From an uncultured bacterium (lineage in GTDB: Bacteria; Krumholzibacteriota; Krumholzibacteriia; LZORAL124-64-63), in assembly GCA_963732385.1 (NCBI GenBank), contig CAVSZB010000007.1:641685-705684 (forward strand): a DNA stretch of 64,000 nucleotides. Direction: 5' to 3'. Each line of letters begins with the position of its first letter. Positions within the stretch are counted from its first letter, which is position 1. Under the pieces are notes generated by a model. The model did not search any database. It saw only the letters and a list, made by a program, of their open reading frames with translations, and was not told where the DNA came from. Shown one piece after another: positions 4,591 to 46,427 of this stretch. The translations under genes were made by a program, and so were the position numbers.

Positions 4591-5016
4591 TCACTCCTCC
4601 CCGCCGCCGGGCGGCGTGCCGGCGCCATCGAAGGTCGTGAACGCGCGCGGCAGCAGGTCGGCCAGCGCCCACTCCTCGTCGGGACCGCCGGCGCCGGCCA
4701 GCACTACCGTCAGACCCGGCGCGAACTCCTGCAGGGCCTGGCGGCAGGCGCCGCAGGGGGGAGTGGGATGCCCCTCCCCCGTGACGACCGCGATGGCCGT
4801 GAACTCCCGCTCCCCGTCGGCGATCGCGCGGCACAGAGCGGCCCGCTCCGCACAGATCGACAGCCCGAAGCTGGCGTTCTCCACGTTCGTGCCGGCGTGG
4901 ATCCGGCCGGACACGCCCAGGAGAGCCGCGCCCACCGCGAAGTGAGAATAGGGAGAATAGCTGCGCGTCCGCACCGCCCGCGCCGCGGCCACCAGTTCGG
5001 CGAAGGGTCCGCTCAT
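4591..5016 (-). CDS. cdd: Cytidine deaminase
   Basis: The CAERAA...PCGACRQ zinc-binding CDA signature is present. The gene is 141 aa. It overlaps deoB by 4 nt. Confidence 0.9.
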   Translation of the reverse strand: MSGPFAELVAAARAVRTRSYSPYSHFAVGAALLGVSGRIHAGTNVENASFGLSICAERAALCRAIADGEREFTAIAVVTGEGHPTPPCGACRQALQEFAPGLTVVLAGAGGPDEEWALADLLPRAFTTFDGAGTPPGGGEE

Positions 5017-6215
5017 GCCGCTCCTCCCGCCGGAGCCGCCCGCAACGTCTCCAGGAAACTCCGACCGACGGCCGGCACCGTCGCGCCGAAGAATTCGGCC
5101 ACGGTGGCCCCGACGTCCGCGAACGTGGCCCGGTCGCCCAACGGACCGCCTCCCTCGCGGCCGCCGAGCATCGCCAACAGCGGCACATATTCGCGCGCGT
5201 GGTCGGTGCTGGCGGTCGTCGGGTCATTCCCGTGGTCGGCGGTGATCAGCAGCAGGTCGCCGGAGCGTAGCCGCGGCAGCCAGCCGGCCAGCCAGGCGTC
5301 GAACCGGGCCAGCTCGGCGGCCATCCCCGCAGGATCGTTGCGATGCCCCCAGAGCATGTCGAAGTCCACCAAATTCAGCAGGAAAAGGACGTCACCGTCT
5401 ACGTCGCGCGCATAGGCCTCGGCCAGCGCCTGCTGTCCCTGCGCGTTTCCCTTGGCGACAATCTTCTCGGTGATCCCCTTTGCTGCATAGAGATCGGAGA
5501 TCTTGCCGACCGCGGTCACACCGACCTCCGCTTCCACGAGGCGGGGCAGCAGGAGCGTGTCGGGCGGCTCGACCGAGAAGTCGCGCCGGTTGGGGGTCCG
5601 GACATAGTGTCCGGAGGCGCCGGTGAACGGCCGTGCGATCACCCGGCTGACATGGTGGGGCGGCACAAGCAGTTGGCGGGCCGCCTCGCACCACGAGTAC
5701 AACCTGGCGAGCGGCACGACCTCCTCGTGCGCAGCGATCTGGAAGACCGAATCGGCCGACGTGTAGATGATCGGCCGCCCCGTGCGCACATGCTCGTCGC
5801 CCAGGCGCTCGATGATCTCCGTGCCGGACGCCACGCAGTTGCCCAGCGCCTCCAGCCCCACCGCTTCACGGAACCGTTCGAGAACGGCGGGAGGGAAGCC
5901 CCCGGGATAGGTCGGAAATGGGACCTCGGTGATAACCCCCATCAACTCCCAGTGCCCGGTCGTGCTGTCCTTGCCATGAGAGACCTCTCCCAGCCGGCCC
6001 CAGGCCGCCAGCGGGCGAACTGCCGGCGGCACGCCGGCGATGGGGTGCAGATTGCCCAGCCCCAGCCGCGCGAGCGTCGGCAGCGCGAGACCGCCGACCG
6101 CGCGCGCCGTATTGCCGAGCGTGTCGCTGCCGGCATCGCCATAGTCGGCCGCGTCGGGCAGTTCTCCCGCGCCGACCCCGTCCAGAATGATGATGACTGC
6201 GCTGGCCAAGCTGCC
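5013..6215 (-). CDS. deoB: Phosphopentomutase
   Basis: Motifs IIILDGVGAGE, MGHRNDP and ITADHGNDPT are present. The ORF track extends to 6428; I trimmed the start by eye to near 6215. Confidence 0.85.
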   Translation of the reverse strand, partial: GSLASAVIIILDGVGAGELPDAADYGDAGSDTLGNTARAVGGLALPTLARLGLGNLHPIAGVPPAVRPLAAWGRLGEVSHGKDSTTGHWELMGVITEVPFPTYPGGFPPAVLERFREAVGLEALGNCVASGTEIIERLGDEHVRTGRPIIYTSADSVFQIAAHEEVVPLARLYSWCEAARQLLVPPHHVSRVIARPFTGASGHYVRTPNRRDFSVEPPDTLLLPRLVEAEVGVTAVGKISDLYAAKGITEKIVAKGNAQGQQALAEAYARDVDGDVLFLLNLVDFDMLWGHRNDPAGMAAELARFDAWLAGWLPRLRSGDLLLITADHGNDPTTASTDHAREYVPLLAMLGGREGGGPLGDRATFADVGATVAEFFGATVPAVGRSFLETLRAAPAGGAA

Positions 6216-6355
6216 ACTCCCCGCTTCGCGGTGAAACAGTCCGAACAGGTTAGGCGGCACTCCGCGCGAAGTCAACGGCCGGCAGCGCCCGCCGGTCGGG
6301 AACGATCCGTGAATCCACAGCTTGTGCGAACGGGGTGACAGCGTAGAATGGTGGC

Positions 6356-7759
6356 ATGTGCGCCGACCTTTTCCGTCATGATCCCGGGCCGTCCGCGTCC
6401 CCCGCATCCGCTGGCGACCGTGCGGCACCGGTTTCCCCGCTCGCCGATCGGATGCGCCCGGCCACGCTCGATGATGTGGTCGGCCAGGACGATCTGCTCG
6501 GCGCCGGTCGGCCTCTGCGGCGCCTGATCGAGACCGACGCGGTGCCGTCGCTCATCCTTTGGGGCCCTCCCGGCTGCGGCAAAACGACCCTGGCACGCCT
6601 GATCGCCGGCCGGGCCCGCGCGCGCTGCCTGGAGTACAGCGCCGTGGCGGTCGGCACGAAGGAGCTGAAGGAGACCATGGTCGAGGCGCAGAAGCTGCGC
6701 CACGCCACCGGTCGGCGCACCCTGATCTTCCTGGACGAGATCCACCGCTTCACCAAGAGCCAGCAGGACTCGCTGCTACCCTGGGTCGAGCGGGGCGACA
6801 TCACGCTGATCGGCGCCACGACGGAAAACCCGTCCTTCGAGTTGAATGCGGCCCTGCTATCGCGGCTGCGCCTGTTCGTGCTGTCCCGCCTGACCCCGAC
6901 CGACCTCGTGGCTCTCCTGCGCCGCGCGCTGGCCGAACCGCGCGGGCTGGCGGGGATGGCCCCCCCGTTCACCGACGAGGCGCTCGACGCCCTGGCGACC
7001 CTGAGCGAGGGCGATGCGCGCAGCTGTCTCAACCTGCTCGAGACTGCGGCGCTGGCGGCAACCGAGACGACCGCGGGACGCTCTGCGCCCCCCGTCACCG
7101 TCGACACACTCGCCGAACTCGTACGCCGACGCCTCCTCCGCTACGACAAGGCGGGCGAGGAGCACTTCAATCTCATCTCGGCTCTGCACAAGTCGCTGCG
7201 CAACAGCGACGCCCAGGCGGCTCTCTACTGGCTCGGGCGCATGCTGGCCGGCGGCGAGGATCCGCTGTACATCGCCCGGCGCCTGGTGCGCTTCGCCAGC
7301 GAGGATGTCGGTCTGGCTGACCCGGCGGCCCTGCCCCAGGCGCTGGCCGCGCGCGACGCGCTGCAGTTCATCGGCCAGCCCGAGGGCGAACTGGCGCTGG
7401 CGCAGGCGGTCGTCTACCTCGCGCTCTCCCCCAAGAGCAACGCGCTCTACACCGGTTACGCGGCCGTGGTCGAGGAGACGCGCCACGGCCTCAATCCCCC
7501 GGTGCCGCTGCAGTTGCGCAACGCGCCCACCTCCATGATGAAGGGGCTCGGCTACGGCGCGGGCTATGTCTACGCCCACGACACCGCGGAGGGAGTCGCC
7601 GCCATGCCGTGCCTGCCGCCCGAACTGGCGGACCGTGAGTTCTACACCCCGACCCGGCGCGGCTATGAGGCCACGCTGGCCGATCGGCTCGCGCGGCTCG
7701 CGGCGTGGCGGCGCCGGCGGGCCGGCGGCGAAGCCGGACAACTAGGAGGCGACGGATGA
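6356..7759 (+). CDS. rarA: Replication-associated recombination protein A (AAA+ ATPase)
   Basis: Walker A ILWGPPGCGKTT and Walker B IFLDEIHRF are present, followed by a MgsA-type C-terminus. It is divergent from deoB. Confidence 0.9.
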   Translation: MCADLFRHDPGPSASPASAGDRAAPVSPLADRMRPATLDDVVGQDDLLGAGRPLRRLIETDAVPSLILWGPPGCGKTTLARLIAGRARARCLEYSAVAVGTKELKETMVEAQKLRHATGRRTLIFLDEIHRFTKSQQDSLLPWVERGDITLIGATTENPSFELNAALLSRLRLFVLSRLTPTDLVALLRRALAEPRGLAGMAPPFTDEALDALATLSEGDARSCLNLLETAALAATETTAGRSAPPVTVDTLAELVRRRLLRYDKAGEEHFNLISALHKSLRNSDAQAALYWLGRMLAGGEDPLYIARRLVRFASEDVGLADPAALPQALAARDALQFIGQPEGELALAQAVVYLALSPKSNALYTGYAAVVEETRHGLNPPVPLQLRNAPTSMMKGLGYGAGYVYAHDTAEGVAAMPCLPPELADREFYTPTRRGYEATLADRLARLAAWRRRRAGGEAGQLGGDG

Positions 7760-8715
7760 AGAGGATCGGCGTGCTCACCGGCGGCGGCGACTGCGCGGGC
7801 ATGAACGCTGCGGTGCGGGCGGTGGTGCGAACGGCCTGGTCGAAGGGCGCCGAGGTGATCGGCATCAACCGCGGCTGGCTCGGCCTGAGCGAGGGTGACG
7901 CCGAGGTGATGGGGCCGGGGTCGGTGAGCGGAATCATCGACAGAGGGGGCACGGTGCTGCGCACCTTCCGCTACCCGGAATTCCAGAATCCGGCCGGACA
8001 GGAGAAAGTGCGCCGCCAGGTCGAGCGACTGAAGCTGGACGGCATGGTGATCATCGGCGGCGACGGCAGCTTCCGGGGCGGCCATGTGCTGGACCACACC
8101 TTCGATCTGCCGGTGATCGGAGTGCCGGGCACCATCGACAACGACATTCCCGGCACCGACTGGTCGATCGGCTTCGACACGGCGCTCAACATCGCGATCG
8201 AGGCCGTGGGCAAGGTCCGCGACACCGCCACCAGCCACGGCCGCATTTTCGTCATCGAGGTGATGGGTCGCTCCTGCGGCCTGCTGGCGATCCAGTCCGG
8301 CATCGCCTGCGGCGCCGAGGAGGTGCTGGTGCCCGAAATCCCGTTCGACCTCGACGAGATCTGCCGCCGTATCGACAAGGGGTACGACCGGGGCAAACGG
8401 CACGCGATCATCATCGTGGCGGAGGGGGCGGCCAAGGCGTCGGTCATCACCTACGAGATGAAGAACCGCCTGCAGCGCAGCATCCGCATGGTGGTCCTGG
8501 GTCACGTGCAGCGCGGCGGCTCCCCGTCGGCCTTCGACCGCATCCTCGCCACGCGCCTGGGCAGCTACGCCACGGAGATCCTGTTCGAGGGCCAGCGCGG
8601 CGTGATGGTTGGCCTGGTGGCCAACCGGTTCAAGACCAGTCCGCTGCGCAAGTCCAGCTACCGCATGGACAAGGTCGTGGCTCACTACGCGGTGCTGCAG
8701 CGCCTGCTGGCCTGA
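7756..8715 (+). CDS. pfkA: ATP-dependent 6-phosphofructokinase
   Basis: The N-terminus MKRIGVLTGGGDCAGMNAAVRAVV and the GGDGSF motif are present. AGGAGG lies 6 nt before the ATG at 7756. The ATGA overlaps rarA. Confidence 0.9.
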   Translation: MKRIGVLTGGGDCAGMNAAVRAVVRTAWSKGAEVIGINRGWLGLSEGDAEVMGPGSVSGIIDRGGTVLRTFRYPEFQNPAGQEKVRRQVERLKLDGMVIIGGDGSFRGGHVLDHTFDLPVIGVPGTIDNDIPGTDWSIGFDTALNIAIEAVGKVRDTATSHGRIFVIEVMGRSCGLLAIQSGIACGAEEVLVPEIPFDLDEICRRIDKGYDRGKRHAIIIVAEGAAKASVITYEMKNRLQRSIRMVVLGHVQRGGSPSAFDRILATRLGSYATEILFEGQRGVMVGLVANRFKTSPLRKSSYRMDKVVAHYAVLQRLLA

Positions 8716-8812
8716 GACGACCTCACTGGCGGCGGAACCGGCAGGCAAACGCCGTGAGCGCAGGGCGCACACGGCGTTCACTCGACAGGACGCAGGGCAG
8801 CCTGTTTCCCGG

Positions 8813-9655
8813 CTAGTCGATCGACCCCTTGACGAAGGTGTTCGCGTAGCGGAACCAGTTCACCTTCATCTTGCCCACGATGTGACCGAGCACGCCGTTG
8901 TCCGCCTTGCGATCGGCGTAGTTCTCGACGACCTCGGTCAGCGTGAACGAACCCTGCAGCGGCAACTGCTTGGCGTTGAGCAGTTCCAGCATCCACTCCG
9001 CGCCGGGGCTCAGTTCCACGATCTCGAGCGTGGCGTTCGGGAAGACGGCGAACCAGCCCTGCTGCTGGGGAGCGGCCGGCTTGGGCGCACGCACGAAACG
9101 GGCAACGAGCGACTGCACCTGGATCGTGGCGCCGCCCGGGTCCTTCGGCAGGTAGTTCTTGGCGTCTTCGATCTTCTTCCAGTCGAGATCCGGCAGGGGG
9201 GCTCCCGGAGTCTGCGTCTGGTCCGACGTTAGTCTGATCACGCGCGGCAGAGCATACGTGAAGACCGAATCGACCATGGTCGCCTGTCCGCCGCGCTTGA
9301 CGCGCCGCACCTTGAGATGCGAGACAGGCGTGAACAGCTTCTGCACGCCCAGGAGCGCTCCCTGATAGGAGGAGACGTTCTGCTCCAGATCCTTGGCGAC
9401 CACGAACTCGAGCACATTGCCGTCGCGAACGATGCCCGCATTCCCTTTGACATATTCGAACTGCGGCGCGTCGATCTCGAACAGGAAGTTCTTGCTCAGA
9501 GTATCGCCGCGGGTAACGGCCCTGAGAGAGGCGTACACGAACGGGTCGACCGCCTTCTTCTTGCCGCAACCCACAAGGCTCAGGCAGGACAGCAGCGCGA
9601 CGACGCCGAGTAGCAACAAGAGGCCCCGGCTACGCATGGACCGCATCAAAGACAT
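8813..9655 (-). CDS. Lipoprotein of unknown function
   Basis: There is a signal peptide with an LVGC lipobox (MSLMRSMRSRGLLLLLGVVALLSCLSLVGCGKKK). AGGGAGG lies 8 nt upstream of the ATG at 9655. The product is rich in K/N/F/Y, like a secreted protein. Confidence 0.7.
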   Translation of the reverse strand: MSLMRSMRSRGLLLLLGVVALLSCLSLVGCGKKKAVDPFVYASLRAVTRGDTLSKNFLFEIDAPQFEYVKGNAGIVRDGNVLEFVVAKDLEQNVSSYQGALLGVQKLFTPVSHLKVRRVKRGGQATMVDSVFTYALPRVIRLTSDQTQTPGAPLPDLDWKKIEDAKNYLPKDPGGATIQVQSLVARFVRAPKPAAPQQQGWFAVFPNATLEIVELSPGAEWMLELLNAKQLPLQGSFTLTEVVENYADRKADNGVLGHIVGKMKVNWFRYANTFVKGSID

Positions 9656-9828
9656 TGGAATGACCTCCCTTGGGACTTCTTTTGCCTTGCGGGTGGGGTG
9701 GCAAGGCCGACACATCTCCAACCTGCACCGGAACTCTGCCTGCGGCAGCGCAGGGCACGAATAATTCCCGGATACGCCTCTCGAACTGCATGGAAAATGC
9801 GGCTTTGGCACCAGGAAAGCAAGCCCGA

Positions 9829-10503
9829 TCACCGACCGTGGCGCGGGACGCCGGGCAATGACGGCAGGCGGGCCAGCATTTCGAGCAAACGGGTCTGCTC
9901 CGGCGCCTCCCATTCCCAGAGCGCGTGAAAAACCTGCCAGTGCTGCGGCAGCAGCACTCCGCCGGCCGAAAAGACCCGGAAGAAGCGACGGCGACGCTCG
10001 GCCAGCGAATAGCCGGGCAGGATGGCCCGTTTGAGCCGACCGTCGAGCGTCACGGCCCAGGCCTCCTGGAACGCCTCGGCCTCTGTCGGCGGCACCTCGG
10101 CCGGCGAGACGGTGCCGTCCCGCAGATCGCGAATCATGAGGAACTGGTGGTAGAGGATGCGTTCCGCCTTCCGGGGCGAAAAGGCCGCCGGATCGCACGA
10201 TTCCGCCACCGGCCCGGCGCGCAGCTCCCAGGCAAGCAACCCCCTCCCCTCAGCGGCGCCCGGCGCGTGATCGCGCAGGAAATGGTCGGGGTGGAACCAG
10301 AGCGCCATCCCGGGCAGCCGCCCCGGCGCGGAGGCGGAGGCAACCGTCGTCACCCAGATCCGTTCGTCAGCGGTGAGGTCGTCGAGCCACAGAGTGAGCG
10401 ACGCCAGGTATCTACCAAGGTCGAGCCGCGCGGCGGCGGTTGCGGCCAGAGGCCGCAGGACGGGAACGAGGGGGTGGTCTCCCGGCAACCAGTCCACGTG
10501 CAT
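9829..10503 (-). CDS. Hypothetical protein (224 aa)
   Basis: The ATG at 10503 is preceded by GGGGGAGGAG. It lies 30 nt downstream of the lyase gene on the same strand. I recognise no motif in it. Confidence 0.5.
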   Translation of the reverse strand: MHVDWLPGDHPLVPVLRPLAATAAARLDLGRYLASLTLWLDDLTADERIWVTTVASASAPGRLPGMALWFHPDHFLRDHAPGAAEGRGLLAWELRAGPVAESCDPAAFSPRKAERILYHQFLMIRDLRDGTVSPAEVPPTEAEAFQEAWAVTLDGRLKRAILPGYSLAERRRRFFRVFSAGGVLLPQHWQVFHALWEWEAPEQTRLLEMLARLPSLPGVPRHGR

Positions 10504-10532
10504 GGCAGCCACTCCTCCCCCCACGACGATCG

Positions 10533-11930
10533 TCAGGCGCCAAACAATTCCCCGCCGCCCAGCGGCCGCAGCCGGGCCCGGAAGTGGCGCAACACCTTCG
10601 GCGCCGATTCGATTTCCAGCCCCCGCAACCGCGACTTGTCCCGTGCGATCCGTCCGCACGCCTCCGCCACATAGGCCAGCTGCGCCAGGCTGTAGACCCG
10701 CCGGGGAATCGCCAGCCGCACCAGTTCCATCGCTGACGGCACGAAGGCGCCGCTGGCCGGATCATCGTGGCCGAACATCAGGCTGCCAATCTCCACGGCC
10801 CGGATGCCGGCTTCGAGATAGAGCGCGGCGGTGAGCGCCTGCCCCGGGAACTGTTCCGGCGGAATGTGAGGCAACAGCGCCTTCGCGTCCACATAGACCG
10901 CGTGTCCACCGACCGGCGTGAGAATCGGGACCCCCGCTTCCTGCAGCAAACCGCCCAGGTAGGCGACCTGCCCCACGCGGTAGCTGAGGTATTCGAGGTC
11001 GAGCACCTCGCGCAGCCCCTGGGCGATGGCCGCCAGGTCGCGCCCCGCCAGGCCGCCGTAGGTCGGGAAACCCTCGGTCAGGATGAGCAGGTTGGTGACC
11101 TGTTCGGCCCAGTCGTCGCGGTTGAGGCAGAGAAATCCGCCGATGTTGACCAGCGCATCCTTCTTGGCGCTCATCGTGCAGCCGTCTCCAAGCGCGAAGA
11201 TCTCGCGGGCGATCTCCGCGACCCCGCGATCTGCCTGGCCGGGCTCCCGCTGGTGGATGAAGTAGCAGTTTTCAGCGAACCGGCAGGCGTCGAAGATCAG
11301 CGGCACGCCACGGGCGCGACAGAACGCGGAAACCTCGCGGATGTTCGCCAGTGAGGCCGGCTGTCCGCCGCCACTGTTGTTGGTGATCGTCATCATGACC
11401 AGCGGGATCCGCGCCTGTCCGTACCGGTCGAAAGCCGCTTCCAGCTTCTGCAGCGACATGTTCCCCTTGAAGGGATGGTCACCGTCGGGACGAAGCCCCT
11501 CATCGATGACACAGTCGAGGGCGATCGCGCCGGTCGACTCGACGTTGGCCCGCGTGGTGTCGAAGTGCGTGTTGTTGGGCACCACGTCGCCCGGTTTCAG
11601 CGCCGTGGCGAAAAACAGGTCCTCGGCGGCCCGTCCCTGGTGGGTGGGGATGACGTGCCGGTAGCCGAAAATGCCACGAATGGTCGATTCGAAATCGTTG
11701 AAACTGCGACTGCAGGCGTAGGCCTCGTCGCCGGTCATCATCGCGGCCCACTGAGCATCGCTCATGGCCGAGGTGCCGCTGTCGGTGAGCAGGTCGATGT
11801 AGGTGGCGTCGGAGGGGATCCAGAACAGGTTGTAGCCGGCCTGTCTAAGCAGCGCGAGCCGTTCCTCGCGACTGATGAGCCGGATGCGCTCCACGACCTT
11901 GGTTCGGTAAGGCTCGAAAGGCCACTCCAT
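10533..11930 (-). CDS. Beta-eliminating lyase (tryptophanase / tyrosine phenol-lyase family, PLP-dependent)
   Basis: Motifs YIDLLTDSGT, PTHQGRAAE and the PLP-lysine region GDGCTMSAKKDALVNIGGFLC are present. So are FPTYGGLAGRD and GGHAVYVDA. AGGAGTGG precedes the ATG at 11930. Confidence 0.85.
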   Translation of the reverse strand: MEWPFEPYRTKVVERIRLISREERLALLRQAGYNLFWIPSDATYIDLLTDSGTSAMSDAQWAAMMTGDEAYACSRSFNDFESTIRGIFGYRHVIPTHQGRAAEDLFFATALKPGDVVPNNTHFDTTRANVESTGAIALDCVIDEGLRPDGDHPFKGNMSLQKLEAAFDRYGQARIPLVMMTITNNSGGGQPASLANIREVSAFCRARGVPLIFDACRFAENCYFIHQREPGQADRGVAEIAREIFALGDGCTMSAKKDALVNIGGFLCLNRDDWAEQVTNLLILTEGFPTYGGLAGRDLAAIAQGLREVLDLEYLSYRVGQVAYLGGLLQEAGVPILTPVGGHAVYVDAKALLPHIPPEQFPGQALTAALYLEAGIRAVEIGSLMFGHDDPASGAFVPSAMELVRLAIPRRVYSLAQLAYVAEACGRIARDKSRLRGLEIESAPKVLRHFRARLRPLGGGELFGA

Positions 11931-12033
11931 CGTTCCACTCCTCATGCGGCGCGGACAGTGTTATGCTGGCGGCGGCAAGATCGCCCCGCGGCGAAGGTAG
12001 CCCGCCGAACGCGGTCGAACAAGGGTCAAGACC

Positions 12034-12516
12034 ATGCCACGTCCGCCCCGCTGGCCCGGCTGGCGCGCCGCCTGGCGCACGCTCGCCGGAGGGGATCATT
12101 CGAACCGCAACCTGGCCGCCGCGCTCGCGCTGGGCGTGCTGGTGGCGCCCACGCCGGTGCTCGGCCTGCACACCTGGATGGCGATCGGACTCGCCTTCAC
12201 GTTCCGCGTCAACCGCCTCGCGGCGTTCGTCGGATCGAACGTCGCCAACCCTCTGACCATGATGCCGCTGGTCTGGCTCGACATCGAACTCGGGGCCCGT
12301 CTGCTCGGCCGCCCCGCCCCCGCCTGGCCCGGGCGTGCCGAAGTCTGGGCGCAGTTGGGATGTCTCTATCTGGAGGCCTGGGCCGGGGCGCTGGTCTTGG
12401 GAGCGGCGGGCGCCCTGGCGACCTACGTTCTGGCGCGTCTGTTGTTGCCGGGGTGGCGTCGACGCGCTCAGTCCGCGGCCGCAGCCTCGTCACCAGTCAG
12501 CGGAGACGATTCCTGA
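12034..12516 (+). CDS. DUF2062-like small membrane protein
   Basis: Hydrophobic segments and a conserved-looking LGLHTWMAIGLAFTFRVNRLAAFVGSNVANPLTMMPL core are present. It is 160 aa. Its 3' end overlaps the giant ORF convergently by 49 nt. Confidence 0.55.
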   Translation: MPRPPRWPGWRAAWRTLAGGDHSNRNLAAALALGVLVAPTPVLGLHTWMAIGLAFTFRVNRLAAFVGSNVANPLTMMPLVWLDIELGARLLGRPAPAWPGRAEVWAQLGCLYLEAWAGALVLGAAGALATYVLARLLLPGWRRRAQSAAAASSPVSGDDS

Positions 12517-15500
12517 TACAGCACCATCACGCGCTCGGTGGCGCGGGCGAACACCCGGTAGTGCCGCTGGCGGGACTCACTTCCGAGACAGAGATAGACC
12601 AGGGTGTCGGCGCCGGTGGCACCGCTCGTTTCCGGGGTCGCCAGGGTCACGACCGGCGCGTGGGGCGTCGCCGCGGGAACGGCGAGCCAGTCGGCCAGTT
12701 CCAGCCGCCAGGCTGCCCACAGCGGCCGCTTCACGAAGTGGCCAGGATTCTCGCCGCCGGCTTCGCGCACCAGCCGTTCCACCCGCCGCTGCACCTCGGG
12801 CCGGGCCAGCCACGGAGAGGCCCAGCCACTGCGGGAGACCCGTGCGTGGATCTCCGCGAGCGAGGCCTCTGCCAGCGACTCGGCCGCGGCGAGCCAACGG
12901 GCATAGGCCGCTGCGCCGGACGGATCGAGCAGCACCGGCAGGAGCGGCGTCCGGGCGCCGTCCGCCTTGCCGGCCTGCGCGGCGATATCGCTGACGACGG
13001 CGACGAATTCCAGCGTGCCGGGCAGCAGCAGCGAATCCAGTTCCCAGCGCAGAACCGGCAGCCAGCCCCGGCCGGCGAGCGAGCGCCCGATATAGAGCAG
13101 ATCATCCCGGGCCGTCGCCACGACGGCACTGCGACGGCCGAGCCGGCCGGAAGACTCTTCCGCCCCCAGGTGCGCCACCACTTCGTCCAGGCTCGCCGCG
13201 CCATGCGCCACCGCCTCCCCGCGCTCACGCCGCAAGGCACGACCGCGCGCCGGCCGACCGTCAGGTTCGGCCGCAAAGTGACGCGTTTCCTCCCACACCC
13301 GGCGCGTCTGCGCCCGCTGATCGACACAGTCCACGACCCGCTCCTGGGCAGGAGTGGTCAGGAACAGATGCTCCCAGGGGGCCTCGGCGGCGGCCGGATC
13401 GACCGTCACCAGCAGACGACCGCCGCGATAACGTTGCTGGACGGCGAAGCGGGTCTCGCGCGGCAGCGCCTCCGCATCGATCAGCAGCGCCGTCTCCCGC
13501 GCCGGGTCGCCCGGCAGATATCGACCGGTGAGGGGCGTGGCGCCGGCGGGCGGCGTGCCCTCGGGCGCGATGAAGAGTGCCGGCGCGACCGCCGCGTCGA
13601 CGTCGCGCCGCCAGGCCAGATGGACCCGCGCCGCCACCGCGGACGATGGACACCAGACACTCACCTCGCCGGGCCGCAGCGCGCCGGACGCCGCGGCGTC
13701 AGCCAGCCCGGCGGCCACGGCGGCCAGACGCCCGGTGCCGGCCGGTCCGCGCAGGACGAGCCATCCCGGCTCGGGGCCGGCGAGCAGGTGAGCCACTTTT
13801 GCGGCCGCCTCCGGCGCCGGCGCTCCGACCACGGGTCGCTGCTGCGGCGCCCGGCTCCGCGCCTCTGCCGGCGCGGTCCCGGCGCCCACGCCTGACTCCG
13901 CGCCGAGACGCGCCGCCTGGCCCGTGCGCCAGGCATCCCCATCGGTCAGCAACGCGACCGTGCGGGCGCGGGCCGCCGCCGGTGCGTCCGCCAGCCAGGC
14001 GAGCGCCGACGTGTCGAGCGCCTCTGCCAGCGGCGCGCCCTCGATCCACCAGGCTCCCAGCAGGCAGCCGACCATCGCCACTTCGGACGGCCAGGCCTCA
14101 CCCGGCGCGAGTGCCACTCGTGCTCCCCCGGAGTCACACACGGCCGTCGCCAGCAGGGCGGTCGCCGCGCCGGCGAACCGTTCCGCCTCCTGCGACAGTC
14201 GCTCGGCCACGGCGCGCGGCCGACCCAGCGTGCCAAGCAGCCTGCGGGAGGAGAACAACACCCCTTCGGGCGCGCGCCAGAGCAGCTCCTCCGTCCCGGT
14301 AGTCCCGCGGAACAGATCACCACCGCCACGCACCGACGCCGCGCTCCGCAGGCGGAGCGACATGGCGAGCAGGAACCGGTCAAGCCAGGCCAGATCTTCT
14401 TCCGTATCACCGTCCCCGCCGACTGCCAGATCGCAGACGACCGGCAAGCCCTCCACCGCCCCTTCGAGCCAGGCCGGCAACCGCACCGCGGCCAGGTCCG
14501 CGGCGCGCCCGAGGCGGTACTCCAACTCTGCGAGCGGCAGCGCCAGACGCAATATCGCGGGCTCGTCGGCGCGCCCGGAGTGCGCCGGTTCACAACCGGT
14601 TTCCAGCACGCTCAGCCAGGCCAGCGTGGAGAGCGACGCAACAACGGTCTCGGTCGGCAAGCCGGTCAGCGCCTCCACCACCGCCGCCGGCAGCGTGCCG
14701 CGACAGGTGCGCGCCCACCCGGGCAACTCGGAGCCTGTGCCGACGGGCACGAGCGCGAGCGACCGCTTCACCCGCTCCAGCGCCGGCGGCAACGCCGGAA
14801 CATCCAGATCATCGAGGTGGCTGGCCACGATCAGCGGGCGGCCGGAGCTCGACATCCCCTCTCCGACCCCGGTGCTCAGACCGAATCGGACAACCGACCC
14901 GTACGGCAGGTCCACCCCTTCGTCGTCCAGTTGCAGCACCCGCCACAGGCTTCCGTCCGGTCCGTTTGCTTCCAGCCGCCCGTTCGCTTCTCCGACAACA
15001 AACCCCATACAGGCAAGTTCTTCTTTTATAATGGAATAATCTGCTTTTCTCACATGACACACGAACTCGTGGTCGGGTGGCGCGCGGTGCCGCATGCCGT
15101 CCAGACGCGCCCTCAGAACGGCTCTTCGCCGCCCCTCACGCTGTGCGCTGCTCTGCCAGGTGGAGAGGTCGAGCCCGCAGGCTGCACAGGCCGGCCTTGC
15201 CCCCACCAGCGGCATCGCCCCGGCGCAGTCGGGACAGAGGGCCGACGCGCTCTCGCCCGGCCAGAACTCCTCGGCAGCATCGATCAACAACTCCGGATCT
15301 GCCATCTTCCCAACGGGCTGCGAATTTTCGGCGAGAAAGTGGGCGAACAGGCGGCGCCAGGGGCCGGCCAGACCGCCGAGACAGAAATCGGTGCGAGGCA
15401 GATCGCGGGCCAGGAACCGCAACGCCACCGCAGCCCCGAGCCGTGGTCGCGGTCCGCTCGGCAACCAGGCCTCCAGCCCGAGCACGAACGCCGCCAGCGG

Positions 15501-18500
15501 CGGCCGCGAAGCGATGGCGGCGCGCAACCCCGGATCGGCCAGCGTTTCCGGCGCGGCCCAGAGAACCGGTCCGAGCGGCGGACGGGGCGCGGTCGCGCCA
15601 TCCACTCCGGCGACCGTCGGCGCCGCCGTGGGAAAGACCGCCGCCAGAGCTCCCGCCCCCATCGGCGGCGCCGGCCCGACCGCGAGCAGCCATGCCCCGG
15701 TCTCGCCGCGCTCCCGCGCCGTCGCGACACTCCGCAGCCACGCCGTCCAGACCGCCGCGCCGTCGCCATCGAGCAGCCGGGCGCCGCGCGGCGACGGCTC
15801 CGACTCAGCCTCGCCCGATCCGGCCCACGGCGCCTCCGGGTCGGAAACGGCTCCCTCCTCTCGGCGCCAGGCCGCGACCACCTCCATACCCACCAACGGC
15901 ACCGCTCCGCGCCGGCGCAGGGAGCCGCGTCGGGTCTTCAGCCCCGGCTTCGCCTGCGGCAGATCGTAGCCGACGGCGCCCCCGGCAACGACCCTCGCCA
16001 GCACATCTTCCCCGCGCGCGGGCAGACCCGCGGCCCCGAAGCCGCCCGGCAGCGGAAAACGGCGGCACCAGCGCGGATCGGCCACATCGACAGACGCCGC
16101 ACCGCAGGCCAGCAGGGCGTTCACTTCGAGGCTGCAGAGTCGCCGCTCGTCCGTGAGGGCGACCGCCCGTTCACGATCGGCCAGCGCCCACGCGTCGGGC
16201 CGATCGGCGGCGGGCCTCACATGGTCGGCAACGCCCAGGCTGTCGAGCACCGGAACCACCAGACGCGCACCTGCCAGCGAGGCGGACGTTACCGCTTCGC
16301 TCCACAGTTCCGCGGGATCGAGACAGTCGGGCGGACCGCTGCCGGCCTCGAGGCTGAGTCGTCCGGCGGCGAACGCGCGCCACATTGCCACCGCCGCAGC
16401 CCCGTGCGCCGGCAGCGCCACCACCGGCCGCTCCCCGTCCGCCATCAGGCGCGTCACGTGCCCCAGTCCGCCTGCCCCTGCCTCGTCGGCCAGCACGCAG
16501 GCATCCGGCGCCACGCCTCCGCACGCCAGCGCCAGCGGGGCGTGCCCCCCTTCCCCGGCGAGGCTCGCCTCGACCGCGCCGTACGGCGCCAGCCACGCCG
16601 TCAACAGCGCCGCGAGATCGTCCCCCAGAAAACAGCCGTCGCGGACCAGCGAAAGATGCCGGTGTCCGCGTCGCGCCAGCTTCGCATGCAGTTCCTCCGG
16701 TCGGGCGAGTCCGGCGCGCCGGAGCTGCCAGTGGATCCGCGCGCTGTCCAGGAAGATCCAGGCCGCTTCTCCCCCCTCCCGCACCCCCCAGATCGTGTCG
16801 CGGATCGGATCGCGATCCCGCAGGCGAGAGGGAGGTCCCACGACCACGCACGATTGCCGCGCCCGCGCGGCGTATTCCCCGGCCCACGGGTCGTCGGCGC
16901 CCGCTTCGCCCGGGATCACGCGGGGCAACGAGTCGGCCAGTGCGGCGTGCCGATCCACGACCGGCAACACCCCGGTCGCCCGCGGACGGAGCCGGAGGTG
17001 ATCGAGAAGATCGCCGTTGTGGGACTCGCTCAACCGCAACCAGTGGAAAAGAGGCAGCAGATCAGGTTCCGCTGCCCGCGACGCCGCAGAGTCGGCCGCC
17101 GGCAGCGCCTCCAGCCAGGCCAGTGCCGCCCGCAGCGCATGCACCTCTCCCCCGGGGGGGATGAGCGTGATGCCGCGCCTTCCGGAGACCGCCGACGCCA
17201 GGTCGGCCAGGCGCGCGGCCTGGTCCAGAACCACCCGCCAGACAGCCTCATCCGCTCCCCAGGCGCGCAGCACGGCGAACGGACGGGGCGAGGCCAGCAG
17301 CAGGGCGGCGGCGGACGACAGCGCCGGCCGCCTCTCCACCACGTCCGCGGAAACCGCGCCCAACTCAGGATCGGGACGCTCGGCGAGCGGCGGCAGACGC
17401 CATTCGGCGCCGACCGCGACGTCATCCAGGGAGCCGCCCTGCCCCGCAGCCTGGAAGCGGGCCACGAACACCGCCGCCCGGTCGCCGCGGGAGCCGAGCC
17501 GCCGCACCCCCGCCCGGGTCCGCGGATCGAGCCCGCGCAACCGGGCAAGGCACGCCAGCCAGAGGAATCCGGCGTCGAGCGCAGCCGCCAGCTCCGGAGC
17601 CGCGGCCGAACGTGACGCGTCAGACACTTCACCGGCGGCGTCCGGGGGCGCGTCCCCAGCCGGCGGGGCCAGCAGCGGATGGCCGGTCTGCCGCTCCCAC
17701 GTCGCGCGCCAGGCGACCTCCTGCAATCGCCTGAGCCGGGTCGCAGCCTCCGGGGTCAGCCCATTCGCCGGCAGTTGCGATTCCAGCAGCGCGACCGCAA
17801 ACGGTCCCACCGGCTCGCCGGCGCAGTCATCCCCGAGTTCGCCCCAGAGTCCCCGCCGCCCTTCATCCCACCGGACCAGCCGCCCGCGGCAGGGGCGCAG
17901 GAGTCGAAGCAGGACCTCCGGATCGTCGCCTGCCCGCCAGAGGGCCACGTCACGCGGTTCGTCGTCGCGCCACAGCACGCAGGTCAGCCCCTGCGACGAC
18001 ATCGCCAAAGACGCCCACGCCTCGGCCGGGGAGTCGGCCGGGTTGCGTCGCTCCAGCGCGCGGCGGGCTGCGCCGAAACGTAGCGCGACCGCGCCGTCGG
18101 CGGGAGGACCGACCTCCAGCAGCGCACGCGCCTCGTCGTGCCGCGGGACCGGCAGGTGCTGCGCGTCCAGGTTCGCCAACAGTTCGATCAGGCGCACGCG
18201 CGCCGCCTCGGCACGCGACCGGAAGGGCTCGGGCAGGGCCAGACAGGCCCGGTAGAGCGGGATCGCCGCCGCCGCGTCGCCTGCGTGGGCGTCGGTCAGA
18301 CGGGCGACGCGCCAGATCCGTTCCGCGTGGAATGGTCCGGACTGCGAGAAATATGCCGCTTCGAGCAGGCGCAGCACCGCCTGCGCCAGCGCAATCCGGC
18401 CGGCCGGCGCAACGTTGCCGGCCGCGGCCAGAGCGTCCAGCCACCCCTCAACCTGGGCTCCCAACGCCACACGATCGGCTTCTGCCAGCGGCAGATCGGC

Positions 18501-18974
18501 ACGGATCAGCGCCGGATCGAAGGGGCGACCGGCGCGGCAGGCAGCGGCGATCGTCGCCGGCAGAAGACGCGCCGCAACCGCGCCATCGCACGGATGGAGC
18601 CGGCTGGCAGTGGTGAGACGCAGCGCCGTGGTCAGGAGCTCGAAATCCTCTGCCGGCGCCCCCGCCGGTCCGCCGGCCGGAAAAACGCCCTGGCTCAGAG
18701 CCGCGGCCACCGCGGCACCGGCCCGGTCCAGGTAGTCCGCGCGAAACGTCTCCGCCGCGGCGGGCCAGCGGCCGGACGAGTGCGCATCGGCCTCGGCGCG
18801 ACGCGCCCGTCCCCAAAGCCGGCGTGCGGCATCGGTGACCGTCTCCGAGAGGAAGACCCGGCCGGGCGAGCGCTCCCGCAGCTCGAGCGCCGTGGCAAAG
18901 GCCGCCTCGGCCTCGGCGAGAGCCCCCGCAGCGAGACGCTCACGGGCGGTCGCCAGCGCATCCCAGTAGCTCAT
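12468..18974 (-). CDS. Giant multidomain protein (2168 aa): low-complexity N-terminal 1200 aa, Cys4 zinc ribbon, C-terminal SF1-helicase-like domain with degenerate ATPase motifs
   Basis: The reading frame is uninterrupted for 6.5 kb. The ATG at 18974 (MSYWDAL) has GGAGGG 8 nt upstream and lies 35 nt downstream of leuS on the same strand. Motifs are CPDCAGAMPLVGARPACAACG, GPAGTGRL (Walker A-like), LLIDAEA (Walker B-like) and YRVFARATERVMVL (motif VI-like). Confidence 0.75.
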   Translation of the reverse strand: MSYWDALATARERLAAGALAEAEAAFATALELRERSPGRVFLSETVTDAARRLWGRARRAEADAHSSGRWPAAAETFRADYLDRAGAAVAAALSQGVFPAGGPAGAPAEDFELLTTALRLTTASRLHPCDGAVAARLLPATIAAACRAGRPFDPALIRADLPLAEADRVALGAQVEGWLDALAAAGNVAPAGRIALAQAVLRLLEAAYFSQSGPFHAERIWRVARLTDAHAGDAAAAIPLYRACLALPEPFRSRAEAARVRLIELLANLDAQHLPVPRHDEARALLEVGPPADGAVALRFGAARRALERRNPADSPAEAWASLAMSSQGLTCVLWRDDEPRDVALWRAGDDPEVLLRLLRPCRGRLVRWDEGRRGLWGELGDDCAGEPVGPFAVALLESQLPANGLTPEAATRLRRLQEVAWRATWERQTGHPLLAPPAGDAPPDAAGEVSDASRSAAAPELAAALDAGFLWLACLARLRGLDPRTRAGVRRLGSRGDRAAVFVARFQAAGQGGSLDDVAVGAEWRLPPLAERPDPELGAVSADVVERRPALSSAAALLLASPRPFAVLRAWGADEAVWRVVLDQAARLADLASAVSGRRGITLIPPGGEVHALRAALAWLEALPAADSAASRAAEPDLLPLFHWLRLSESHNGDLLDHLRLRPRATGVLPVVDRHAALADSLPRVIPGEAGADDPWAGEYAARARQSCVVVGPPSRLRDRDPIRDTIWGVREGGEAAWIFLDSARIHWQLRRAGLARPEELHAKLARRGHRHLSLVRDGCFLGDDLAALLTAWLAPYGAVEASLAGEGGHAPLALACGGVAPDACVLADEAGAGGLGHVTRLMADGERPVVALPAHGAAAVAMWRAFAAGRLSLEAGSGPPDCLDPAELWSEAVTSASLAGARLVVPVLDSLGVADHVRPAADRPDAWALADRERAVALTDERRLCSLEVNALLACGAASVDVADPRWCRRFPLPGGFGAAGLPARGEDVLARVVAGGAVGYDLPQAKPGLKTRRGSLRRRGAVPLVGMEVVAAWRREEGAVSDPEAPWAGSGEAESEPSPRGARLLDGDGAAVWTAWLRSVATARERGETGAWLLAVGPAPPMGAGALAAVFPTAAPTVAGVDGATAPRPPLGPVLWAAPETLADPGLRAAIASRPPLAAFVLGLEAWLPSGPRPRLGAAVALRFLARDLPRTDFCLGGLAGPWRRLFAHFLAENSQPVGKMADPELLIDAAEEFWPGESASALCPDCAGAMPLVGARPACAACGLDLSTWQSSAQREGRRRAVLRARLDGMRHRAPPDHEFVCHVRKADYSIIKEELACMGFVVGEANGRLEANGPDGSLWRVLQLDDEGVDLPYGSVVRFGLSTGVGEGMSSSGRPLIVASHLDDLDVPALPPALERVKRSLALVPVGTGSELPGWARTCRGTLPAAVVEALTGLPTETVVASLSTLAWLSVLETGCEPAHSGRADEPAILRLALPLAELEYRLGRAADLAAVRLPAWLEGAVEGLPVVCDLAVGGDGDTEEDLAWLDRFLLAMSLRLRSAASVRGGGDLFRGTTGTEELLWRAPEGVLFSSRRLLGTLGRPRAVAERLSQEAERFAGAATALLATAVCDSGGARVALAPGEAWPSEVAMVGCLLGAWWIEGAPLAEALDTSALAWLADAPAAARARTVALLTDGDAWRTGQAARLGAESGVGAGTAPAEARSRAPQQRPVVGAPAPEAAAKVAHLLAGPEPGWLVLRGPAGTGRLAAVAAGLADAAASGALRPGEVSVWCPSSAVAARVHLAWRRDVDAAVAPALFIAPEGTPPAGATPLTGRYLPGDPARETALLIDAEALPRETRFAVQQRYRGGRLLVTVDPAAAEAPWEHLFLTTPAQERVVDCVDQRAQTRRVWEETRHFAAEPDGRPARGRALRRERGEAVAHGAASLDEVVAHLGAEESSGRLGRRSAVVATARDDLLYIGRSLAGRGWLPVLRWELDSLLLPGTLEFVAVVSDIAAQAGKADGARTPLLPVLLDPSGAAAYARWLAAAESLAEASLAEIHARVSRSGWASPWLARPEVQRRVERLVREAGGENPGHFVKRPLWAAWRLELADWLAVPAATPHAPVVTLATPETSGATGADTLVYLCLGSESRQRHYRVFARATERVMVLYQESSPLTGDEAAAAD

Positions 18975-19009
18975 GTTGCCCGCCCTCCGTGGCGGGGTCG
19001 TCGCGCCGG

Positions 19010-33612: not shown

Positions 33613-33777
33613 CCAACCTCCGCCCGCGCACCCACATCCGGTCCTGCGCGGACACAAAAGTACACGGCGGGCAGACCCGGTCCACCCCGCCCGGCAAAGC
33701 GACCTGAGAAGATAGCCGATCGGGCCGGGGAAGGCAAGCCGCCGACCAGGCCCGGGGATCCCGTCGTCCGGGAGGGA

Positions 33778-46054: not shown

Positions 46055-46427
46055 GACCGGCGCCCCCTTGGCGGCGCCGCGGAGCCCGCGCGTGGCGGAC
46101 CCGGAGATAAACGTGAAATGTTAGCCCGACGCTCCGGCCGTGTCAATTGGCCTCCGCCGAACCGCCCCAACCTCCGCCCCGCCCCCGTCCGTCGCCTGCC
46201 GGACCGGCGAGCGGAACCTTGTGACACCCGCGGGGAATCCGTATGTTCAGGCGATGGCGCCGGGGCACAAAGTCCTGGACACCAATGAAGGCGGAAGTTA
46301 ACGTTCATCACTGCGGGTTGGACCTGTGCACCAGCCCGGTTCAACCGCCCCACCTGAACCCTCCGACCCGTCTCACGCGGCGGTCAGGGTGACGATGCGG
46401 TCGATGACAATCCACTCGAGGTGTGGT

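Follow-up and report, generated by a model that had tools for sequence, protein, structure and literature searches.

What does a lyase of the tryptophanase/tyrosine phenol-lyase (TPL) family cleave in an uncultured bacterium of the Krumholzibacteria, and do the two genes that follow it on the same strand belong to its function? Both questions are raised by a 64,000-nucleotide (nt) stretch of DNA from this lineage, referred to here as the window. An earlier note, made from the sequence alone, described in it an apparent operon of three minus-strand genes, encoding a lyase of ambiguous substrate, a 224-amino-acid protein and a lipoprotein, and proposed that they might form an indole/phenol signalling or detoxification module. 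All three genes lie where that note placed them: the lyase gene at 10533..11930, the gene for the 224-amino-acid protein at 9829..10503 and the lipoprotein gene at 8813..9655. Our reading is that the locus probably consists of a bicistron of tnaA, the gene for tryptophan indole-lyase (tryptophanase, TnaA), and a gene for a zincin-derived protein, or pseudo-zincin, lying beside an independent lipoprotein gene within a synteny that extends across the lineage.

The G+C content of the window is ~70% and chance open reading frames (ORFs) of great length cover its every frame, so that ORFs alone prove little and gene models need checking against homologues. For the two downstream genes such homologues are at hand, with 28 clusters at 90% identity for the 224-amino-acid protein (among 5.8 billion proteins) and at least 100 clusters for the lipoprotein, and the N-termini of homologues align with the starts chosen in the earlier gene models. 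The loci compared were drawn from the genomes of 15 GTDB species, from 14 contigs of metagenomes and from six more contigs, the last reached through lipoprotein homologues or distant homologues of the 224-amino-acid protein; identities in the comparison across loci are relative to the window proteins.

Results

Substrate specificity of the lyase

The lyase gene encodes 465 amino acids, beginning MEWPFEPY, and ends in a TGA stop codon (10535-10533). The motifs GDGCTMSAKKDALVNIGGFLC were confirmed in the translation, and the lysine that would bind pyridoxal phosphate (PLP) is K257, within the sequence SAKKD. An in-frame ATG lies five codons 5′ of the chosen start and is unlikely to be used, because it overlaps the GAGGAG ribosome-binding site. 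The assignment to the TnaA/TPL family is borne out by a match to Pfam PF01212 Beta_elim_lyase (261.5 bits, residues 46-423), and the NCBIfam subfamily model NF009709, named ‘tryptophanase’, is matched with 655 bits, well past its cutoff of 285.

It is the active-site residues that speak most directly to the substrate. A comparison of 50 indole-lyases with 50 phenol-lyases yielded exactly five differently conserved positions, occupied by Asp137, Phe304, Val394, Ile396 and His463 in tryptophan indole-lyases and by Thr124, Met288, Met379, Arg381 and Phe448 in TPLs, where Arg381 is described as the essential base as well as a substrate-binding residue (PMC5805759). When the window lyase is aligned to Escherichia coli TnaA (K-12 record) and to Citrobacter freundii TPL (PDB alignment), it has the TnaA residue at five of the five, its D124, F288, V379, I381 and H449 corresponding to D137, F304, V394, I396 and H463 of the E. 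coli enzyme. None of the five TPL-type residues (C. freundii numbering) is present; T124 is replaced by D, M288 by F, M379 by V, R381 by I and F448 by H. The catalytic residues common to TnaA and TPL are all kept (T49, Y71, R100, F123, N185, D214, R217, K256/K257, R405 and F450), and K257 aligns with K270 of E. coli TnaA. The tryptophanase pattern at the five positions recurs in the lyases from 23 records of related loci, several of them redundant, the sole variation being Cys for Val394 in two. At the level of residues, the ambiguity that the earlier note saw in the substrate is resolved, and the lyase can be called a tryptophanase with good confidence as a sequence-based annotation.

Comparison with the two characterized enzymes places this call in context. 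Like E. coli TnaA, the window lyase has the fold-type-I PLP-dependent beta-eliminating lyase domain, an identical SAKKD, every catalytic residue and all five indole-pocket residues, but it lacks the 10-residue insertion that the E. coli enzyme has near residues 118-127 and is 42% identical overall. Among solved structures, C. freundii TPL is nearest in sequence (466-475 bits, 47% identity) and is co-linear with the lyase except for one one-residue indel; the flanks of the PLP lysine, DGCTMS and LVNIGGFLC, are the same in both, whereas the pocket residues differ as described above. The observation of a TnaA-like SAKKD between TPL-like flanks was therefore a correct one.

The annotation as such is not new. 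An identical protein, encoded on a 1.6-Mb contig, has already been deposited in public collections, and mates in its 90% cluster carry the annotation ‘tryptophanase’ from IMG and NCBI (MHB8080237.1, Candidatus Krumholzibacteriia). The enzyme would be an ordinary tryptophanase, already so annotated in public databases, in a poorly known phylum.

Gene spacing and promoter-like motifs

The spacing of the three genes is uneven. Between the lyase stop codon and the second gene there are 29 nt in the window and -4 to 35 nt across related loci (84 nt in the locus L012), and this gap contains a Shine-Dalgarno sequence, GGGGAGGAG (10512..10520, minus strand), 8 nt before the ATG at 10503; the close downstream position and the ribosome-binding site that the earlier note had described are thus as stated there. 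The gap between the second gene and the lipoprotein gene is 173 nt in the window and 164-346 nt across related loci. On its other side the lyase gene is separated from a gene for a giant protein, described below, by 87-150 nt, or by ~530 nt where an opposite-strand DUF2062 gene intervenes.

Comparing intergenic sequences across loci revealed promoter-like motifs in two of these gaps. One, TTGTTCGACCGCGTTCGGCGGGCTACCTTC (TTG-N19-TAnnTTC; 11993..12022, minus strand), lies 63 nt 5′ of the lyase ATG in the 103-nt divergent gap between the lyase and DUF2062 genes, where the conserved block reads CTTGT-N18/19-TA(A/C)nTTCG. The other, TTGCTTTCCTGGTGCCAAAGCCGCATTTTC (9793..9822, minus strand), lies right behind the stop codon of the second gene and 138 nt 5′ of the lipoprotein ATG, with the conserved block TTGC(T/A)TTTT-N-CCAATTTC. 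A loose pattern, TTG-N18-22-[TC]AnnTT[CT], has only 2-5 plus-strand matches per ~16-kb locus. In 16 of the 17 non-redundant loci one of them is found 44-106 nt ahead of the lyase ATG, and in 16 of 16 loci another is found 108-166 nt ahead of the lipoprotein ATG. The earlier note had named independent promoters for the downstream genes as what would refute its operon, and a promoter-like motif is what we find before the lipoprotein gene.

Conservation of this motif in the gap before the lipoprotein gene makes a single three-gene operon unlikely. The short gaps and lack of an internal promoter expected of such an operon are found for genes 1 and 2 and fail for genes 2 and 3. We infer two units, one being the lyase and the 224-amino-acid protein genes, which are likely a bicistron, and the other the lipoprotein gene alone. 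Of the operon originally proposed, the first two members hold together and the third appears to have a promoter of its own.

A strict form of the motif, CTTG-N17-22-TAnnTTC, matches the window three times where 0.22 matches would be expected. Each match is intergenic and ~60-100 nt 5′ of a gene on the same strand, upstream of the lyase gene (11993-12023, minus strand), of ffh (33708-33738, minus strand) and of the ORF at 46326 (46218-46248, plus strand). We take the motif to resemble the promoters of Bacteroidetes (-33 TTTG/-7 TAnnTTTG), and it is a candidate for the housekeeping promoter consensus of this phylum. A scan with sigma-70 and terminator consensus sequences returned one intragenic promoter-like match, along with terminator-like matches that were weak and near chance.

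Also upheld is the absence of tnaC and tnaB. No TnaB-like permease is encoded in the 64-kb window (tblastn, best E 2.8), no separate leader ORF lies in the ~63 nt between the promoter-like motif and the lyase ATG, and no Rfam element is matched in 8500-12700, even in permissive mode. The shortness of this 5′ region, together with the fact that the one ATG in it ahead of the lyase start shares the reading frame of the lyase, leaves no room for a tnaC-type leader. The locus therefore differs from the E. coli tnaCAB operon. It is without a tnaC leader peptide, a long leader region and a tnaB permease, its lyase gene is followed by a pseudo-zincin gene, and its promoter-like motif is TTG-N19-TAnnTTC rather than TTGACA/TATAAT.

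The 224-amino-acid protein

The product of the second gene has no match in Pfam, NCBIfam or PADLOC and no signal peptide, and it is predicted to be cytoplasmic. A profile search found 64 representatives among 1.84 billion proteins, and the genomes with a homologue are metagenome-assembled genomes (MAGs) labelled uncultured bacterium, ‘Fibrobacteraceae’ (a placeholder) or Candidatus Krumholzibacteriia. A confident AlphaFold2 (AF2) model (pLDDT 83, pTM 0.80) has an N-terminal beta-alpha-beta-beta-beta unit followed by a helical C-terminal part; a Foldseek search of the PDB with this model gave nothing significant (E at least 0.3, TM at most 0.28), the weak matches being Wss1, YbeY and snake-venom metalloproteinases.

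The more distant relatives suggest what this protein once was. All those found by the profile search (205-325 amino acids) bear LHE[LF]xHxxD, an HExxH motif, and hhalign joins the family of the 224-amino-acid protein (A1) to this HExxH branch (A3) with a probability of 99.6% and an E of 2.7e-24. Within the HExxH branch the columns H117, E118 and D124 show no variation and H121 hardly any. In both the alignment and hhalign, the motif falls onto YHQFLMIRD of the window protein, in which H119-Q-F-L-M123 with D126 replaces HExxH..D: H119 and D126 are kept, and the zinc-binding/catalytic motif is not intact. The same holds for its Krumholzibacterial relatives, which have Q, H, N, R or S at the position of the catalytic Glu (Glu is kept only in P0137 and P0166) and L, M, A, S or T at that of the second His in every member, independent of an adjacent lyase. 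The HExxHxxD proteins (P0161-P0191, ~205-325 amino acids) are homologous to the window protein (profile E 1e-17 to 1e-4) and share with it the motif W-x-V-x-[IV]-D-G-R-L-x-R, but unlike it they have HExxH intact, and the one context examined has no adjacent lyase. Some of these proteins have a C-terminal CxxC...CxxC zinc ribbon; in P0174, P0179, P0184, P0187 and P0191 (~300-325 amino acids) this zinc-ribbon-like tail reads CPLCxFPT...W...C(A/E)RCAE.

The secondary-structure order of the window protein, beta-alpha-beta-beta-beta and then helices, recalls that of zincins (Wss1/SprT-like, YbeY, eCIS_core/DUF4157, Peptidase_M76/M91), although no structural or Pfam match to them is significant and the protein is without their defining motif. 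Sub-threshold Pfam matches of the HExxH relatives (eCIS_core, Peptidase_M76, Peptidase_M91; E at least 0.004) sit on the motif helix. The profile of the HExxH branch has no match among PDB sequences, and we found neither a Pfam model nor a solved structure for the HExxH family; profiles of the 224-amino-acid protein family match neither the giant protein nor the lipoprotein. Taken as a whole, the comparison indicates that the 224-amino-acid protein is most likely zincin-derived and no longer hydrolytic. Since the catalytic Glu and the second zinc-binding His are lost, it probably acts by binding rather than cleaving.

The lipoprotein and its upstream region

The third gene encodes 280 amino acids beginning MSLMRSMRSRGLLLLLGVVALLSCLSLVGC, with a signal peptide and the lipobox LVGC. 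Its N-terminus, MSLMRSMRSRGLLLLLGVVALLSCLSLVG-C30, fits the lipobox pattern [LVI][ASTVI][GAS]C, from which lipidation is predicted, and Gly29-Cys30 is invariant in 45 homologues, in keeping with the earlier description of a lipobox lipoprotein; a DPYVY...FEIDAP core is also conserved among the homologues. The few clusters that carry an organism name are labelled Krumholzibacteria or unclassified bacterium, and the protein belongs to no Pfam, NCBIfam or PADLOC family. Its confident AF2 model (pLDDT 88, pTM 0.78) is mainly beta, and Foldseek against the PDB found nothing significant, with weak matches to HIN-200 and aaRS-OB (tandem OB-type) folds at a TM of ~0.2. It is probably a cell-envelope protein specific to the phylum.

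A Shine-Dalgarno sequence, AGGGAGG (9664-9670, minus strand), lies upstream of the lipoprotein ATG at 9655, and ahead of it in the 5′ untranslated region is a hairpin, GCCTTGC-N10-GCAAGGC (9684..9707, minus strand), with 7-nt arms that are 100% complementary. Counterparts of the form (G)CCTTGC-N9/10-GCAAGG(C), with a CCCACC-type loop, occur in L010, L003, L013, L022 and L023, and the hairpin lies ~15-25 nt 5′ of a strongly conserved lipoprotein ribosome-binding site, CCAAGGGAGGT. It is kept in several distant loci and swapped for other hairpins elsewhere, and could be a translational control element. Many relatives (L013-L027) also have, ~70 nt 5′ of the lipoprotein ATG, a sigma-70-like element of canonical form, TTGACG-N17/18-TA(A/C/G)nAT, that is strongly conserved among them; it is unrecognisable in the window and its closest relatives, L010 and L003. 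In most of the lineage the lipoprotein gene may thus have two promoters of different types. Beyond the 3′ end of the gene, a terminator-like hairpin (8748..8778; 14-nt arms, 93% complementary, 3-nt loop) lies between the convergent lipoprotein and 6-phosphofructokinase (PFK) genes.

Synteny and separability

It is informative to view the three genes within the larger region. All loci examined but two have the same order, consisting of a 2000-2270-amino-acid protein, the lyase, a protein of ~210-240 amino acids and a lipoprotein of ~290 amino acids, and continuing with PFK and RarA on the opposite strand; beyond RarA there are usually phosphopentomutase (deoB), cytidine deaminase (cdd) and further nucleoside-catabolism genes. 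Because these housekeeping genes (PFK, RarA, deoB, cdd) are equally syntenic, conservation of the trio is by itself no argument for a functional module, and is best read as broad synteny. The earlier expectation that the arrangement would be conserved in related genomes is correct as to gene order, but the conservation is region-wide and its pieces are separable.

Two loci illustrate this separability. In L012, HDOD, zinc-ribbon, HATPase_c_2 and BacA genes come after the giant gene, DUF2062, the lyase gene and the gene for the 224-amino-acid protein, and that position has no lipoprotein, PFK or RarA gene. L029 (logan:SRR30568137 contig, 23.5 kb) represents a more distant lineage, its PFK being 59% identical, and has no lyase at the locus; its order is the giant gene, a gene for a secreted 186-amino-acid protein with a strong terminator, the homologue of the 224-amino-acid protein, a 285-amino-acid protein with a predicted signal peptide and the lipoprotein homologue (32% identity), then PFK and RarA on the opposite strand. 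A third context, L028, contains the distant HExxH-bearing homologue P0164 with no lyase nearby. Taken at face value, these contexts mean that the 224-amino-acid protein is not strictly dependent on TnaA.

The proteins of the region differ in how well they are conserved. The lyase is 67-84% identical across loci and PFK 66-84%; conservation equal to that of PFK indicates that the lyase is under strong purifying selection, constrained much as a glycolytic enzyme would be. Identities are 38-62% for the 224-amino-acid protein, 45-68% for the lipoprotein and 31-44% for the giant protein across these loci (31-93% over essentially all related loci), and compared with the lyase the accessory proteins appear to be fast-evolving. 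In L002/L009 (contig_27656, a 289-kb MAG) frame changes break up cdd and the genes for the lyase, the giant protein, RarA, phosphopentomutase and the lipoprotein, a pattern that resembles assembly indels. We considered whether the split lyase and lipoprotein genes there are pseudogenes and rejected the idea; nearly all genes on the contig are frameshifted, and assembly errors are likelier.

Neighbouring genes

Directly 5′ of the lyase gene in essentially all related loci is the giant ORF, which in the window encodes 2271 amino acids (12468-19283, minus strand). Around residue 1350 of its product there is a zinc ribbon, CPDC...CAAC, and around residue 1846 a P-loop-like motif, GPAGTGR; the product has no Pfam, NCBIfam or PADLOC match. 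That the giant protein and the pseudo-zincin could be parts of a defence island is unlikely, given that there are no PADLOC matches and that synteny beside housekeeping genes is stable across the lineage. The DUF2062 gene (12034-12516, plus strand) lies between the giant and lyase genes and overlaps the 3′ end of the giant gene by 49 nt; it is found only in nearer relatives (L002/L009, L003, L012 and L033) and is absent from more distant loci. On the other side of the trio are genes for cytidine deaminase (4591-5016, minus strand), phosphopentomutase (5013-6428, minus strand), RarA/MgsA (6356-7759, plus strand) and PFK (7705-8715, plus strand). As listed, the RarA and PFK ORFs overlap by ~55 nt, from which the true PFK start is probably further downstream, near MKRIGVLT.

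Discussion

The identification of the lyase as a tryptophanase has to be weighed against several observations. In a ranking of PDB sequence matches, TPLs (475-460 bits) come before the TnaA of P. vulgaris (452) and that of E. coli (382), and in overall identity the lyase is slightly closer to C. freundii TPL (47%) than to the E. coli enzyme (42%). It also scores under the cutoffs of both TnaA equivalog models, TIGR02617 (487 against 825.8) and NF053783 (545 against 750), whose training sequences come from other phyla. Moreover, single-residue reversions of an engineered variant to the indole-lyase or TPL consensus abolished its new activity, and the five positions therefore act in combination (PMC5805759). 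The call itself rests on active-site residues rather than on clade membership or an assay. One could take these points, together with the TPL-like flanks of the PLP lysine and a score for the TPL equivalog model TIGR02618 (544.7) equal to the best TnaA equivalog score, to mean that the enzyme is a TPL or has dual specificity and releases phenol from tyrosine. We regard this as very improbable: none of the TPL-specific residues is present here or in the 23 orthologue loci, with the changes including Arg381 to Ile, Thr124 to Asp and Phe448 to His, and the TIGR02618 score is likewise under its cutoff (720.7). Nor does overall similarity seem to be informative about the substrate, as E. coli TnaA and C. 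freundii TPL are 43% identical to each other, about as close as the lyase is to either, and this near-equality explains the earlier impression of ambiguity. A different thought is that the lyase serves something other than tryptophan catabolism, either the reverse reaction, making tryptophan from scavenged indole, or beta-elimination of Cys or Ser. TnaA is reversible and has side activities on both amino acids, and the 64-kb window has no tryptophan permease; yet the residues of the indole pocket are strictly kept throughout the lineage, pointing to the indole moiety as the selected substrate or product, and we give such a role little credence.

How the genes are grouped invites a similar weighing. 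Nothing points specifically to a signalling or detoxification module, and a dedicated operon of this kind, in which both accessory proteins act on the indole or phenol made by the lyase, seems to us quite improbable. The shared strand, an order conserved in Krumholzibacterial loci with two exceptions and the lack of a strong terminator between genes 2 and 3 would fit it. However, conserved promoter-like elements lie in the constant 164-346-nt gap before the lipoprotein gene, the flanking PFK, RarA, deoB and cdd genes are just as syntenic, the L012 site is without the lipoprotein gene, genes 2 and 3 persist in L029 although it has no lyase gene, and neither accessory protein resembles a transporter, oxygenase or sensor in Pfam, NCBIfam or Foldseek. 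Somewhat less improbable, and still unlikely, is that the pseudo-zincin is a dedicated non-catalytic partner of TnaA, acting as a regulator, scaffold or stabiliser in a new two-gene tna operon. In its favour, wherever a lyase gene is present, across all non-redundant loci from the three sources, the pseudo-zincin gene begins -4 to 35 nt (84 in L012) behind the lyase stop and has a Shine-Dalgarno sequence of its own. The pair also stays joined where synteny breaks in L012, and proteins that have turned into binders typically lose their catalytic residues while keeping the fold. Set against this are the homologue in L029, which has an upstream terminator and gap of its own and no lyase, the HExxH relatives elsewhere that are not beside lyases, and the fast evolution of the protein (38-62%) next to a highly conserved TnaA (67-84%). 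The division into a bicistron and a separate lipoprotein gene also has points that count against it. There is no convincing intrinsic terminator behind the gene for the 224-amino-acid protein, so read-through into the lipoprotein gene is possible, and the promoter motifs are deduced from a comparison of loci. The lyase-less case (L029), the lipoprotein-less case (L012) and L028 are one contig each, and the tight coupling of the second gene to tnaA, seen in all loci except one, would likewise be expected of a dedicated partner.

With these points considered, we favour a tnaA–pseudo-zincin bicistron beside an independent lipoprotein gene. In such an arrangement the lyase (EC 4.1.99.1) would cleave L-tryptophan by PLP-dependent beta-elimination, giving indole, pyruvate and ammonia, and its gene would be transcribed from its own promoter-like element ~60 nt upstream without tnaC or tnaB. 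The second gene would be translationally coupled to it, or nearly so, and most likely co-transcribed. The product of this gene is pictured as a cytoplasmic protein descended from an HExxH zincin-like family, with its catalytic Glu and second zinc-binding His lost and with no obligatory tie to TnaA. The lipoprotein gene would be transcribed separately, from conserved promoter-like elements of its own, and would have a cell-envelope product, and the three genes would be adjacent because synteny holds for the entire region throughout the lineage.

These findings neither open nor close a long-standing question. The tryptophanase call adds uncultured Krumholzibacteria to the predicted producers of indole in sediments, soils and bioreactors. 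What may be new at this locus is an unannotated HExxH family with a degenerate Krumholzibacterial branch and, possibly, a genuine partner of TnaA. One can imagine going further and supposing that the tryptophanase and the zincin-derived pseudoenzyme are an obligate pair across the sampled Krumholzibacteria lineages, the latter binding TnaA or indole and controlling activity, stability or localisation. We see only a small chance that this is so; if it were, these lineages would control tryptophanase through a protein where enterobacteria use tnaC/Rho attenuation, and the HExxH family would have its first function. The by-products of the analysis may in the end be more useful than its main finding, namely a zincin-like family with a Krumholzibacterial branch in which catalytic residues have been lost, and a candidate promoter consensus for a phylum that has neither a cultured member nor mapped promoters.

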